From IMG/VR virus record IMGVR_UViG_2695420585_000010: a stretch of DNA of 4,907 bases; one strand, 5' to 3'. The stretch is from a virus. Taxonomy: Duplodnaviria > Heunggongvirae > Uroviricota > Caudoviricetes. The position numbers and the translations under genes were made by a program. The notes beneath the pieces were generated by a model, which was not told the origin of the DNA, made no database searches, and saw only the letters and a list, made by a program, of their open reading frames with translations. Below are positions 1-4,907 of this stretch, one piece after another (the stretch's first letter is position 1; every line of letters begins with the position of its first letter).

Positions 1-392
1 TGGGGACTCTCCCTGCCGTCACTGCGTCGTCGCCTGTTCCGCTGTGTCTCCATCCGGGAAAACACGGACGGCACCTTTGCCATCACGGCGGTGCAGCACG
101 TACCGGAAAAAGAAGCCATTGTGGATAACGGGGCCAGCTTTGAGCCGCAGTCAGGCACCCTGAACAGCGTTATTCCACCGGCTGTGCAGCACCTGACGGT
201 GGAGGTGAGCGCGGCTGACGGTCAGTATCTGGCACAGGCGAAATGGGACACGCCGCGGGTGGTGAAGGGTGTGCGCTTCAGTCTGCGCCTGACCAACGGA
301 AGCGGAGAAGACAGCCGTCTGGTGACCACCGCCATCACTGCGGATACAGAGCATCGTTTCAGTGGTCTGCCTCTCGGGGAATACACCCTGAC
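1..392 (+). CDS. J: Partial internal fragment of lambdoid tail-tip host-specificity protein J (allele B copy), open at both ends; probably a redundant assembly fragment
   Basis: Frame starting at nt 1 is open throughout ([26 protein letters not shown]...GLPLGEYTL). By eye it is identical to 1701-2003 over their overlap and near-identical to 573-964 and 2845-3236. It ends abruptly at the N at 393, after which the sequence jumps to a more upstream part of J in a different frame. Confidence 0.6.
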
Positions 393-393
393 N
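393..393. other. Single ambiguous base (N) at a discontinuity between two J fragments
   Basis: Sequence left of 393 corresponds to 573-964; sequence right of it (394-572) is J sequence lying upstream of that block. Reading frame changes across the N. Confidence 0.8.
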
Positions 394-1699
394 ATGCCGC
401 CAGCCGCACCCTGACACTGGACCGTGAGGTGACCCTGCCGGAGACAGGTGCCGCCACGGTGAACCTGATTAACGGCAGCGGTAAGCCGGTGAGCGTGGCC
501 ATCACTGCACACCCCGCGCCGGACCGGATACAGGTCAGCACCCTGCCTGATGGTGTGGAGACATACGGTGTGTGGGGACTCTCCCTGCCGTCACTGCGTC
601 GTCGCCTGTTCCGCTGTGTCTCCATCCGGGAAAACACGGACGGCACCTTTGCCATCACGGCGGTGCAGCACGTACCGGAAAAAGAAGCCATCGTGGATAA
701 CGGGGCCAGCTTTGAGCCGCAGTCAGGCACCCTGAACAGCGTTATTCCACCGGCAGTGCAGCACCTGACGGTGGAGGTGAGCGCGGCTGACGGTCAGTAT
801 CTGGCACAGGCGAAATGGGACACGCCGCGGGTGGTGAAGGGTGTGCGCTTCAGTCTGCGCCTGACCAACGGAAGCGGAGAAGACAGCCGTCTGGTGACCA
901 CCGCCATCACTGCGGATACAGAGCATCGTTTCAGTGGTCTGCCGCTCGGGGAATACACCCTGACAGTCAGGGCAATTAACAGTTATGGCCAGCAGGGCGA
1001 ACCGGCCACCACCACGTTCAGGATTAATGCACCTGCGGTACCCGCCACGATTGAGCTGACACCGGGCTATTTTCAGATAACAGCGGTCCCGCGTCTTGCG
1101 GTGTATGACCCGACGGTACAGTTTGAATTCTGGTTTTCGGAGGCAAAAATCGCAGACACCGCACAGGTGGAAACCGCTGCCCGTTATCTGGGGACCGGCA
1201 GCCAGTGGAGCGTCTCCGGCAGCCGGATTAAGCCGGGGACGGATTTCTGGTTTTACGTGCGCAGCGTCAACCTGGTGGGGAAATCTGCTTTTGTGGAAGC
1301 CAGTGGCCGGGCCAGCAATGATGCAGAAGGGTATCTGGGGCTGTTTCGGGAAAAAATAGGAAAACTGCATCTGGCTCAGGGGCTGTGGGAGCTGATAGAC
1401 AACAGCCAGCTTGCGGATGAGATGGCGGAGATGAAGACCACCATCACCGAAACCCGCAATGAAATCACACAGACGGTCAGTAAAACGCTGGAAGACCAGA
1501 GCGCCACCATTCAGCAGATACAGCGCGTGCAGAAGGACACAAATGATGACCTGGCTGCGCTGTACATGCTGAAGGTTCAAAAAACGAAAGACGGCATTCC
1601 CTATGTGGCCGGGATTGGTGCAGGGATTGAGGATACTGATGGCCAGCCACTGAGCAACATACTGCTGCTGGCTGACCGTATCGCGATGATAAATCCGGA
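394..1699 (+). CDS. J: Partial fragment of host-specificity protein J (allele A), open at both ends
   Basis: Continuous open frame with first full codon at 396 ([62 protein letters not shown]... to ...[12 protein letters not shown]). 550-1699 equals 2822-3971 except for one difference noted by eye (868 A vs 3140 G). Contains two FN3-like segments and a helical segment. Confidence 0.65.
662..1699 (+). repeat. Copy 1 of a ~1038-bp block of J shared by all three long fragments
   Basis: Direct comparison: 662-1699 aligns with 1701-2738 (offset 1039) and with 2934-3971 (offset 2272), with scattered substitutions against the middle copy. Confidence 0.85.
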
Positions 1700-1700
1700 N
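1700..1700. other. Single ambiguous base (N) at a discontinuity between two J fragments
   Basis: Left of 1700 the sequence ends in ...ataaatccgga; right of it restarts at ggtgcagcacgtaccgg, which matches 662 onward. This is a backward jump of about 1 kb with a frame change. Confidence 0.8.
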
Positions 1701-2738
1701 GGTGCAGCACGTACCGGAAAAAGAAGCCATTGTGGATAACGGGGCCAGCTTTGAGCCGCAGTCAGGCACCCTGAACAGCGTTATTCCACCGGCTGTGCAG
1801 CACCTGACGGTGGAGGTGAGCGCGGCTGACGGTCAGTATCTGGCACAGGCGAAATGGGACACGCCGCGGGTGGTGAAGGGTGTGCGCTTCAGTCTGCGCC
1901 TGACCAACGGAAGCGGAGAAGACAGCCGTCTGGTGACCACCGCCATCACTGCGGATACAGAGCATCGTTTCAGTGGTCTGCCTCTCGGGGAATACACCCT
2001 GACGGTCAGGGCGATTAACAGCTATGGCCAGCAGGGCGAACCGGCCACCACCACGTTCAGGATTAATGCACCTGCGGTACCCGCCACGATTGAGCTGACA
2101 CCGGGCTATTTTCAGATAACAGCGGTCCCGCGTCTTGCGGTGTATGACCCGACGGTACAGTTTGAGTTCTGGTTTTCGGAGACAAAAATCGCAGACATAT
2201 CTCAGGTGGAAACCTCTGCCCGTTATCTGGGGACCGGCAGTCAGTGGAGTGTATCCGGCCCGCACATTAAGCCCGGGAAGGATTTCTGGTTTTACGTGCG
2301 CAGCGTCAACCTGGTGGGCAAGTCTGCGTTTGTGGAAGCCAGTGGCCGGGCCAGCAATGATGCAGAAGGGTATCTGGGGCTGTTTCGGGAAAAAATAGGA
2401 AAACTGCATCTGGCTCAGGGGCTGTGGGAGCTGATAGACAACAGCCAGCTTGCGGATGAGATGGCGGAGATGAAGACCACCATCACCGAAACCCGCAATG
2501 AAATCACACAGACGGTCAGTAAAACGCTGGAAGACCAGAGCGCCACCATTCAGCAGATACAGCGCGTGCAGAAGGACACAAATGATGACCTGGCTGCGCT
2601 GTACATGCTGAAGGTTCAAAAAACGAAAGACGGCATTCCCTATGTGGCCGGGATTGGTGCAGGGATTGAGGATACTGATGGCCAGCCACTGAGCAACATA
2701 CTGCTGCTGGCTGACCGTATCGCGATGATAAATCCGGA
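1701..2738 (+). repeat. Copy 2 of the shared ~1038-bp J block (variant allele)
   Basis: Aligns base-for-base in register with 662-1699 and 2934-3971; carries the allele-B substitutions. Confidence 0.85.
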
Positions 2739-2810
2739 GAACGGCAACAGCACGCCGTTATTTGTGGCGCAGGGGAATCAGCTGTTCATGAACGACGTGT
2801 TCCTGAAGCG
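1701..2810 (+). CDS. J: Partial fragment of host-specificity protein J (allele B), open at both ends
   Basis: Open frame with codons starting at 1702 ([22 protein letters not shown]... to ...[11 protein letters not shown]). Differs from the 394-1699 and 2822-4644 copies by mostly synonymous substitutions plus a cluster of replacements at 2182-2280. The GTG at 1702 used by the ORF track is not a credible start, because it sits immediately after an N junction inside J-homologous sequence. Confidence 0.65.
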
Positions 2811-2821
2811 NNNNNNNNNNN
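2811..2821. other. Run of 11 N: scaffold gap or junction between J fragments
   Basis: Left flank ends ...gtgttcctgaagcg (equivalent to 4034-4043); right flank restarts at atggtgtggagacatacgg (equivalent to 550 onward). This is a backward jump of about 1.2 kb, not a simple unsequenced gap. The frame happens to be preserved, which creates the artefactual 980-aa ORF. Confidence 0.85.
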
Positions 2822-4644
2822 ATGGTGTGGAGACATACGGTGTGTGGGGACTCTCCCTGCCGTCACTGCGTCGTCGCCTGTTCCGCTGTGTCTCCATCCG
2901 GGAAAACACGGACGGCACCTTTGCCATCACGGCGGTGCAGCACGTACCGGAAAAAGAAGCCATCGTGGATAACGGGGCCAGCTTTGAGCCGCAGTCAGGC
3001 ACCCTGAACAGCGTTATTCCACCGGCAGTGCAGCACCTGACGGTGGAGGTGAGCGCGGCTGACGGTCAGTATCTGGCACAGGCGAAATGGGACACGCCGC
3101 GGGTGGTGAAGGGTGTGCGCTTCAGTCTGCGCCTGACCAGCGGAAGCGGAGAAGACAGCCGTCTGGTGACCACCGCCATCACTGCGGATACAGAGCATCG
3201 TTTCAGTGGTCTGCCGCTCGGGGAATACACCCTGACAGTCAGGGCAATTAACAGTTATGGCCAGCAGGGCGAACCGGCCACCACCACGTTCAGGATTAAT
3301 GCACCTGCGGTACCCGCCACGATTGAGCTGACACCGGGCTATTTTCAGATAACAGCGGTCCCGCGTCTTGCGGTGTATGACCCGACGGTACAGTTTGAAT
3401 TCTGGTTTTCGGAGGCAAAAATCGCAGACACCGCACAGGTGGAAACCGCTGCCCGTTATCTGGGGACCGGCAGCCAGTGGAGCGTCTCCGGCAGCCGGAT
3501 TAAGCCGGGGACGGATTTCTGGTTTTACGTGCGCAGCGTCAACCTGGTGGGGAAATCTGCTTTTGTGGAAGCCAGTGGCCGGGCCAGCAATGATGCAGAA
3601 GGGTATCTGGGGCTGTTTCGGGAAAAAATAGGAAAACTGCATCTGGCTCAGGGGCTGTGGGAGCTGATAGACAACAGCCAGCTTGCGGATGAGATGGCGG
3701 AGATGAAGACCACCATCACCGAAACCCGCAATGAAATCACACAGACGGTCAGTAAAACGCTGGAAGACCAGAGCGCCACCATTCAGCAGATACAGCGCGT
3801 GCAGAAGGACACAAATGATGACCTGGCTGCGCTGTACATGCTGAAGGTTCAAAAAACGAAAGACGGCATTCCCTATGTGGCCGGGATTGGTGCAGGGATT
3901 GAGGATACTGATGGCCAGCCACTGAGCAACATACTGCTGCTGGCTGACCGTATCGCGATGATAAATCCGGAGAACGGCAACAGCACGCCGTTATTTGTGG
4001 CGCAGGGGAATCAGCTGTTCATGAACGACGTGTTCCTGAAGCGGCTGTTTGCGGTGAGTATCACCTCGTCCGGCAATCCCCCGACGTTTTCCCTGACGCC
4101 GGAGGGCAGGCTGACCGCAAGAAATGCTGATATCAGCGGTAACGTGAATGCGAATTCCGGGACGCTCAACAACGTCACGATTAACGAGAACTGTCGGGTT
4201 CTGGGAAAACTGTCCGCGAACCAGATTGAAGGCGATCTCGTTAAAACAGTGGGCAAAGCTTTCCCCCGGGATTCCCGTGCACCGGAGCGGTGGCCATCAG
4301 GGACCATTACCGTCAGGGTTTATGACGATCAGCCGTTTGACCGGCAAATTGTTATTCCGGCGGTGGCATTCAGCGGCGCTAAACATGAGAGAGAGCATAC
4401 TGATATTTACTCCTCATGCCGTCTGATAGTGCGGAAAAACGGTGCTGAAATTTATAACCGTACCGCGCTGGATAATACGCTGATTTACAGTGGCGTTATT
4501 GATATGCCTGCCGGTCACGGTCACATGACGCTGGAGTTTTCGGTGTCAGCATGGCTGGTAAATAACTGGTATCCCACAGCAAGTATCAGCGATTTGCTGG
4601 TTGTGGTGATGAAGAAAGCCACCGCAGGCATCAGTATCAGCTGA
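2822..4644 (+). CDS. J: 3' portion of tail-tip host-specificity protein J (central tail fibre), about 607 codons with native stop; true start lies upstream of the window
   Basis: Long open frame (codons from 2824) ending at TGA 4642-4644 (...[14 protein letters not shown]). Contains two FN3-like segments (about 3019-3590, e.g. [18 protein letters not shown] and [16 protein letters not shown]), a Pro/Gly-poor helical segment (about 3643-3865) and a C-terminal domain. Sits immediately upstream of lom, as in phage lambda. This is the only copy that continues colinearly to the gene end. Confidence 0.85.
2934..3971 (+). repeat. Copy 3 of the shared ~1038-bp J block (within the colinear J 3' portion)
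   Basis: Aligns in register with 662-1699 (one difference noted by eye) and with 1701-2738 (allele-B differences). Confidence 0.85.
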
Positions 4645-4662
4645 ATTTTATAACCCATATAC

Positions 4663-4690
4663 GGGCGCCAGAAATGGCGCCTTTTTTATT
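4663..4690 (+). terminator. Rho-independent (intrinsic) terminator downstream of J
   Basis: Perfect GC-rich stem GGCGCC (4664-4669) pairing with GGCGCC (4676-4681), 6-nt loop AGAAAT, followed directly by TTTTTT (4682-4687). Located 19 nt after the J stop codon. Confidence 0.7.
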
Positions 4691-4700
4691 GCAGAAAAGC

Positions 4701-4706
4701 GAGAGG
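4701..4706 (+). promoter_or_regulatory. Shine-Dalgarno sequence for lom
   Basis: GAGAGG with a 5-nt spacer before the ATG at 4712. Confidence 0.6.
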
Positions 4707-4711
4707 TAATT

Positions 4712-4907
4712 ATGCGTAGACTTTATGCCGCCATTTTGTCCGCAGCCATTTGTCTGGCCGTATCCGGTGCGCCTGCATGGGCGTCTGAACATCAGTCCAC
4801 GCTGAGCGCGGGGTATCTTCATGTCTCGACGAACGTTCCTGGCAGCGATAATCTTAACGGGATTAACGTGAAATACCGTTATGAATTCACGGACACGCTG
4901 GGGCTGG
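4712..4907 (+). CDS. lom: Outer membrane protein Lom (Ail/Lom/PagC family beta-barrel), 5' portion; continues past the window end
   Basis: ATG at 4712 with a good RBS; translation MRRLYAAILSAAICLAVSGAPAWASEHQSTLSAGYLHVSTNVPGSDNLNGINVKYRYEFTDTLGL. This has a typical signal peptide (predicted cleavage after AWA) and closely resembles my recollection of the lambda Lom N-terminus. Position immediately downstream of J matches lambda. Not in the ORF track because no stop codon falls in the window. Confidence 0.9.
   Translation, partial: MRRLYAAILSAAICLAVSGAPAWASEHQSTLSAGYLHVSTNVPGSDNLNGINVKYRYEFTDTLGL

Follow-up and report, generated by a model that had tools for sequence, protein, structure and literature searches.

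The window analyzed here, a 4,907-nt stretch of DNA from a viral sequence record, presents the middle and 3′ part of the lambdoid gene J four times over. The question that it raises is whether this repeat is a true amplification within a tail-fibre gene or was produced during assembly.

The J fragments are separated by the only N runs in the window

Across the whole window, non-ACGT characters are confined to positions 393, 1700 and 2811–2821, and these N runs divide it into four displaced, overlapping copies of J, which we named fragments A (1–392), B (394–1699), C (1701–2810) and D (2822–4907) (Table 1). Each of the three breakpoints coincides with exactly one N run, with no other N in the sequence, and the match of three breakpoints with the sole three N runs over 4.9 kb is far beyond chance. 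An independent repeat finder likewise retrieved four copies, whose starts are 572, 1039 and 1233 nt apart. A tandem array would show a constant period, one repeated junction and uninterrupted sequence; instead, the window has three different spacings, three differing breakpoints and an N at each of them. Duplicated pieces lying on one scaffold with gaps between the members of each pair are a hallmark of false duplication (Ko et al. 2022, PMC9516828), and this is the arrangement seen here. The possibility that the Ns are one-for-one masked real bases was ruled out, because colinearity breaks exactly at every N run. A previous sequence-only reading had proposed overlapping J fragments joined at Ns, with three junctions that differ in a way a regular tandem duplication would not produce, and both points hold, as the Ns sit only at the breakpoints of overlapping pieces and the spacings are unequal.

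Table 1. Coordinates of the fragments, junctions, domains and other features identified in the window.
Feature	Position	Strand	Remarks
Fragment A, partial J, allele 1	1–392	+	nt 1675–2066 of the 3474-nt gpJ gene of E. coli UTAK-2
Single N, A/B junction	393		D-equivalent 3237: G in allele 1, A in allele 2
Fragment B, partial J, allele 2	394–1699	+	gpJ nt 1496–2801
Single N, B/C junction	1700		
Fragment C, partial J, allele 1, continues A	1701–2810	+	gpJ nt 1764–2873
11-N run, C/D junction	2811–2821		
J portion of fragment D: 3′-terminal 1823 nt, colinear, with stop codon	2822–4644	+	gpJ nt 1652–3474, residues ~552–1157
Ig_J	2995–3306	+	Pfam E 4.8e-42
Ig_J_second	3310–3612	+	Pfam E 3.7e-39
Phage_Tail_Tip	3781–4164	+	Pfam E 1.7e-23
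Ig_GpJ_C receptor-binding domain	4249–4641	+	Pfam E 1.1e-37
J–lom interval: terminator-like G+C hairpin with a T run after it	4663–4690	+	1 found vs 0.3 expected in shuffles
Ail/Lom-family outer-membrane protein gene, 5′ 65 codons, ends at window edge	4712–4907	+	Pfam match

Two alleles of J alternate among the fragments

Ungapped pairwise comparisons showed that identity among the repeated pieces is 97.5–100%. Two of the correspondences proposed earlier were reproduced, A with 2845–3236 of D (4 mismatches in 392 nt) and C with 2934–4043 of D (27 in 1110). The third, of 394–1699 with 2666–3971, is correct as an offset only, because 2666–2821 consists of the tail of C plus Ns; B reaches 156 nt farther 5′ than D, and 394–549 is J sequence lying 5′ of the start of D and without a partner in the window. 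The remainder of B (550–1699) differs from 2822–3971 at a single site in 1150 nt (868 A vs 3140 G), a position at which J alleles naturally vary between A and G. Fragments A and B show three mismatches, whereas 90–392 of A is identical to 1701–2003 of C (0/303), placing the start of C at the equivalent of position 90 in A and not at 91 as first reported. Between B (662–1699) and C (1701–2738) there are 26 differences in 1038 nt. The fragments thus fall into allele 1, comprising A and C, and allele 2, comprising B and D; the earlier grouping stands for A and C, but B and D, being one polymorphic site apart, are not strictly one allele. Differences between C and D are bunched, with 20 of the 27 located in 2166–2328, the equivalent of a variable patch at 3399–3561 in D. 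Because the copies differ from one another, they cannot simply be one locus counted twice. The sample contained no fewer than two near-identical J genes, and probably three or more.

Two junctions break the reading frame of J

The offsets are, modulo 3, 0, 1 and 0, with B in a different frame from A and C, and consequently the A/B and B/C junctions break the J frame. The C/D junction keeps it, an outcome with a chance of 1 in 3. The ORFs 91..414 (GTG), 243..1739 (ATG) and 1702..4644 (GTG, 980 aa) are present as originally listed, and their interpretation as artefacts was borne out: the stretch 243–392 of ORF 243..1739 is fragment A read in the wrong frame, while the 980-aa ORF reads through four X residues (XXXX) across the C/D junction. 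Exact-protein look-ups of the 980-aa ORF, of the 498-aa ORF and of the 606-aa product of D matched no record.

The fragments end at sites that vary among J alleles

Each of the seven internal fragment ends is 0–1 nt away from a position at which close J alleles vary; a formal test, which included six of the ends, gave P ~0.0004 under random placement. Likewise, the window starts one base past a G/A variant site, and C ends one base short of a G/A/T variant site. Ends at sites that differ between copies are characteristic of false duplication or mis-scaffolding, and this pattern is as expected if contigs broke at paralogue variants.

The fragments map to a single J-lom locus in closed genomes

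In phage genomes, the whole 4907-nt window stacks as four pieces on ~2241 nt (~2.24 kb) of one J-lom locus. As expected for a mis-scaffold, the pieces are colinear on one locus in finished genomes, from which the joins are absent. Fragment B matched as one 1306-nt piece, with 99.6% identity, the gpJ gene of UTAK-2 and others, and D, also as one piece, matched gpJ plus lom of UTAK-2 with 99.1% identity. Both are colinear with one UTAK-2 gpJ gene; allele 1 matched best another gpJ gene of that chromosome, situated 380 kb away. These two UTAK-2 paralogues differ at 30 of the 1038 positions of the shared block, compared to 26/1038 between the window alleles, and at 165 of 589 sites over the equivalent of 4044–4644. 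Their strong divergence starts at ~4270, downstream of the end of C, and the idea that C ends at a boundary of strong paralogue divergence is thus only partly true.

Among complete E. coli genomes, those carrying J have a median of 2 matching places, with a maximum of 16–20, and the closed genomes related to the best matches have 9–13 matching J places each. We found neither allele as an exact copy in any closed genome, the best identities being the above values for B and D and 98.8% for allele 1. A 40-mer of allele 1 recurred at 19 independent loci from metagenomes and IMG/VR, all of them N-free and with each fragment colinear with a single J gene, and was unmatched in the genome contig collection. 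The presence of this 40-mer in metagenome and IMG/VR contigs, together with the lack of an exact closed-genome allele and the single difference between B and D, which could be strain variation, would be consistent with the same artefact arising in a mixture, such as a metagenome or a contaminated culture, with each allele coming from a separate E. coli strain or phage. We consider this origin unlikely, given that one genome suffices for the data: related closed genomes have 9–13 J places, and the paralogues of a single chromosome are as divergent from each other as the window alleles.

Fragment D contains the 3′ end of J and the start of lom

The order of domains in D is that of the 1157-aa reference gpJ, up to and including the C-terminal receptor-binding domain. 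The lom gene is recognizable from its start at 4712 (PF06316 Ail_Lom, E 6.9e-34, profile positions 1–65 of 199), and lom likewise follows J in UTAK-2 and Stx phages. The N-terminal FNIII-A and Phage-tail_3 domains were found in the reference gpJ but not in the window, which holds nothing 5′ of gpJ nt 1496; this truncation of J is due to the contig and is not evidence of a pseudogene. The same domain order and an Ail/Lom gene are found in phage lambda, where gpJ (the tip attachment protein or central tail fibre) is followed by lom; in contrast to lambda gpJ, the window, in its D copy, is without the 5′ 1651 nt of J that include FNIII-A and Phage-tail_3, and its allele is at most 99.1% identical to closed-genome copies.

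The repeated copies take in the Ig-like domains together with a portion of the fibre domain, whereas the receptor-binding domain lies outside the repeated block and occurs once. The earlier remark that the receptor-binding region would be amplified was therefore wrong, and the partial copies do not supply alternative versions of this domain, as the members of a silent-cassette or diversity array would. Only D is trustworthy, comprising the 3′ end of J, the terminator-like hairpin and the 5′ end of lom, and the genuine biological content of the window is unremarkable.

The junctions are absent from complete E. coli genomes

We searched for the junctions in a set of complete E. coli genomes (5,426) and in viral, genome and metagenome contig collections. 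Among the 5,426 genomes, none showed a match covering at least 80% of the 161-nt probe for the B/C junction or of the 171-nt probe for the C/D junction, and there was no match to a 43-nt probe for the A/B junction, whose half-matches are too short to reach the E-value limit. A 161-nt probe for the A/B junction produced matches "99% covered", which were discarded as a real junction: among the matches listed, they consist of two pieces over 571–574 nt, the distance normally found on a colinear J, with the probe halves in swapped order. The N-containing junction pattern was unmatched in the viral, genome and metagenome contigs, with literal-N matching by pattern being uncertain.

The lack of the junctions in 5,426 closed genomes would still be compatible with a rearrangement private to one strain. 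Accepting the arrangement as real implies a rearranged and partly amplified J locus, such as a degenerate array of pseudogenes or silent, partial cassettes 5′ of an expressed 3′ end of J, in which the Ns are uncalled bases; the frame kept at the C/D junction and the non-identity of the copies would agree with it. Nevertheless, we regard such a locus as highly improbable: all breakpoints fall exactly on the sole Ns, the offsets differ, two junctions are out of frame, the joins were found neither in the complete genomes nor in the three contig collections, and the C-terminal domain that determines host range is not among the copies. Additionally, ends at paralogue variant sites are what assemblers produce, not recombination. 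With real joins, the locus would be an array of truncated J segments, private to one strain and located 5′ of an intact J 3′ end, which is barely conceivable; if true, it would constitute a reservoir of alternative patches of Ig-like domains (the variable patch, 2166–2328 in C and 3399–3561 in D) for gene conversion among prophage tail-tip genes.

Discussion

Every sequence-level test open to us supports the initial proposal of a chimeric or concatenated assembly rather than a tandem array. The window is, very probably, a scaffold or concatenate of four partial-J contigs with N placeholders, a conclusion that we draw from the sequence and its comparison with other genomes. As judged from these comparisons, the four-fold repeat is an assembly artefact of an ordinary kind and not a biological amplification.

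The artefact could have arisen in a few steps. The contigs stop where the J copies differ, as the positions of the fragment ends show, and a scaffolder, gap-closer or contig-ordering step may then have chained the overlapping pieces, writing gaps of minimal size (1 and 11 N), there being no true gap to fill. The most likely source of the alleles would be separate lambdoid prophages within a single E. coli genome of STEC/EPEC-like type. The overlaps between pieces of the same allele (303 and 1150 nt) exceed what a simple de Bruijn assembler would leave, and the step involved could be the merging of multiple assemblies, gap closing or ordering against a reference. A lone N is the mark that some scaffolders and gap closers leave at an unresolved overlap, a habit on which our interpretation does not lean.

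Instead of read-pair mis-scaffolding, the pieces might have been concatenated deliberately or automatically, through reference-guided ordering or as a pseudo-molecule with N separators. They are sorted by rising J end coordinate (3236, 3971, 4043 and beyond 4907), as if against a reference, and A lies within the range of B, and C within that of D, pieces that a distance-based scaffolder should not serialise. However, the separators are of unequal length (1, 1 and 11 N), while concatenation tools usually insert a fixed spacer, and the order of the start coordinates is non-monotonic; this route is thus possible, if on balance doubtful.

Assembly through a chain of partial-J contigs has parallels in previous work. 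In heterotype-like false duplication (PMC9516828) there are likewise copies a few percent apart on one scaffold, separated by gaps, that lead to spurious gene gains and long ORFs; unlike in those cases, the window variants most likely represent prophage paralogues from a haploid bacterium instead of the haplotypes of a diploid. Draft genomes of EHEC break up at homogeneous lambdoid prophages (PMC7175801), and the fragmentation of short-read STEC/EHEC assemblies (PMC7175801; PMC9278759) likewise affects the multi-copy lambdoid tail region, with contig breaks inside phage genes. Those studies describe contig breaks only, whereas in the window the broken pieces have also been strung together as a single record.

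Read literally, the record would give a false 980-aa "J" containing duplicated Ig-like domains, two more false ORFs and a spurious amplification of a tail fibre, and annotation should draw on 2822–4907 only. The value of the finding is mainly one of data hygiene, as such artefacts inflate gene-family counts and can reach protein databases. What the window reflects of the biology of these phages is already well known: several nearly identical J paralogues in which a variable patch is mosaic, carried by the lambdoid prophages of pathogenic E. coli.

Fragments of gene J and their displacement

The only non-ACGT characters in the window are at positions 393, 1700 and 2811–2821, and they bound four partial copies (fragments A to D) of the lambdoid tail-tip gene J; every junction is thus at an N, as the sequence-only reading had stated. 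Ungapped comparisons bore out the displacements that it proposed for A, with 4 mismatches in 392 nt to D 2845–3236, and for C, with 27 in 1,110 nt to D 2934–4043. Fragment B had been equated with 2666–3971, which stands as an offset, since B 550–1699 aligns to D 2822–3971 with a single mismatch in 1,150 nt (868 A vs. 3140 G), but not for 394–549, J sequence from upstream of the start of D that has no partner in the window. The proposed sharing of alleles holds for A and C (allele 1), with A 90–392 and C 1701–2003 identical (0/303 differences), but only nearly so for B and D (allele 2), which differ at that one site. An independent repeat finder also retrieved four copies, with spacings of 572, 1,039 and 1,233 nt, confirming the four displaced fragments and that their breakpoints all differ.

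Features of the window (gpJ coordinates refer to the gene from Escherichia coli UTAK-2)
Feature	Position	Match or remark
Fragment A	1–392	gpJ nt 1675–2066
Fragment B	394–1699	gpJ nt 1496–2801
Fragment C	1701–2810	gpJ nt 1764–2873
Fragment D	2822–4907	gpJ nt 1652–3474, then lom start
Ig_J	2995–3306	on D; Pfam
Ig_J_second	3310–3612	on D; Pfam
Phage_Tail_Tip	3781–4164	on D; Pfam
Ig_GpJ_C, receptor-binding	4249–4641	on D; Pfam
Terminator-like G+C hairpin	4663–4682	T run to 4690; directly after J stop codon
Shine-Dalgarno-like GAGAGG	4698–4714 (span)	7 nt before lom ATG
Ail_Lom	from 4712	on D; Pfam

The junctions are absent from complete genomes

The offsets modulo 3 are 0, 1 and 0, and the J frame is broken at junctions A|B and B|C. 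The ORFs starting at 243 and 1702, already considered artifacts, are indeed so: the first 50 codons of ORF 243..1739 are fragment A read out of frame, and ORF 1702..4644 passes through XXXX. When 5,426 complete E. coli genomes were searched with junction probes of 161–171 nt, none covered 80% or more of the B|C or C|D probes. Among the matches listed, the A|B probe was covered solely as two pieces spanning 571–574 nt, which we rejected as a real junction because it reflects the usual colinear gene, its two halves being exchanged in the probe; a 43-nt A|B probe, scoring only on the contiguous junction, had no match in the same genomes, and the A|B pattern was not found in viral, genome and metagenome contig collections. 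Conversely, the 4,907-nt window stacks as four pieces on approximately 2,241 nt of one J-lom locus in phage genomes, and in 19 independent loci with an allele 1 40-mer, none of them containing Ns, every fragment was colinear with a single J gene.

The unequal offsets, the broken frames and the absence of the joins from 5,426 complete genomes support a chimeric assembly instead of a tandem array and, as judged from these sequence comparisons, the four-copy arrangement is not a real feature. A real rearrangement of J private to this strain is extremely improbable, as it needs three different breakpoints, each coinciding with the only uncalled bases of the window. The assembly artifact agrees with previous works: homogeneous lambdoid prophages cause fragmentation of EHEC drafts (PMC7175801; PMC9278759), and a primary hallmark of false duplications is that gaps separate the duplicated pairs within a scaffold (PMC9516828).

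All seven internal fragment ends lie 0–1 nt from a site varying among close J alleles (summed distance of 3 in a formal test of six ends; P ~0.0004 under random placement), and the N at 393 falls on the G/A site telling the two alleles apart; this is the signature of contigs stopping at repeat-copy branch points. The same-allele overlaps of 303 and 1,150 nt are longer than simple de Bruijn assembly would leave, suggesting that pieces were merged or put in order at some step; the joins could have arisen by mis-scaffolding, gap closing, assembly merging or reference ordering. The alleles may derive from a single genome or, in a mixed sample, from several strains.

The underlying J gene and its paralogs

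Fragment D matches complete E. coli chromosomes in a single piece (up to 99.1%) that runs from the 3′ portion of gpJ into the start of an Ail/Lom gene. This gpJ, annotated as "gpJ: phage attachment tail tip protein J", is 3,474 nt long in UTAK-2 and is also matched by B, over one 1,306-nt piece (99.6%). From the domain positions on D, the repeated block spans both Ig-like domains and a portion of the fiber domain; the receptor-binding domain occurs once, contrary to the suggestion that a real arrangement would amplify it. The usable part of the window is only 2822–4907, where an unremarkable 3′ end of J is followed by a terminator and the 5′ end of lom; the hairpin and Shine-Dalgarno-like motif suggest transcription of lom either on its own or through read-through.

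Genomes carrying this J contain a median of 2 matching places (up to 16–20; 9–13 in the closest genomes). In the UTAK-2 chromosome, B and D match one prophage and allele 1 best matches another, 380 kb away; these two J paralogs differ at 30/1,038 sites of the shared block, vs. 26/1,038 between the window alleles (B vs. C). At the only site where they differ, B encodes Asn (AAC) and D encodes Ser (AGC); this is a natural polymorphism at 3140, with G common and A found in the J allele L004 as well as in A, B and C. Since other J alleles show either state, B and D are probably two different J copies, rather than one locus assembled twice, and at least three J variants are therefore probably present.

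Two side observations concern individual loci. The J copy of IMGVR_UViG_2529292905_000025 has an in-frame TAG (equivalent to 3970–3972; GAG in all others), an apparent premature stop reflecting either a pseudogene or a sequencing error; it is the codon where B ends, which we consider a coincidence. In UTAK-2, the side tail fiber gene of the prophage carrying the allele 2-like J is immediately followed by an IS66-family element whose tnpA is frameshifted (L001, 8080–9306).

Differences between alleles 1 and 2 concentrate (20/27) in 163 nt of the second Ig-like domain (2166–2328, equivalent to 3399–3561; ...SGPHIKPGK vs. ...SGSRIKPGT), followed by 482 identical nt; this patch looks like recombination or gene conversion between J paralogs. 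The two UTAK-2 J loci (L001 and L002, NZ_CP157162.1) are 97% identical up to the fiber domain and differ at 165/589 sites in the 3′ receptor-binding part (equivalent to 4044–4644); therefore, the 3′ end of allele 1, which the window lacks, may diverge considerably from the one in D.
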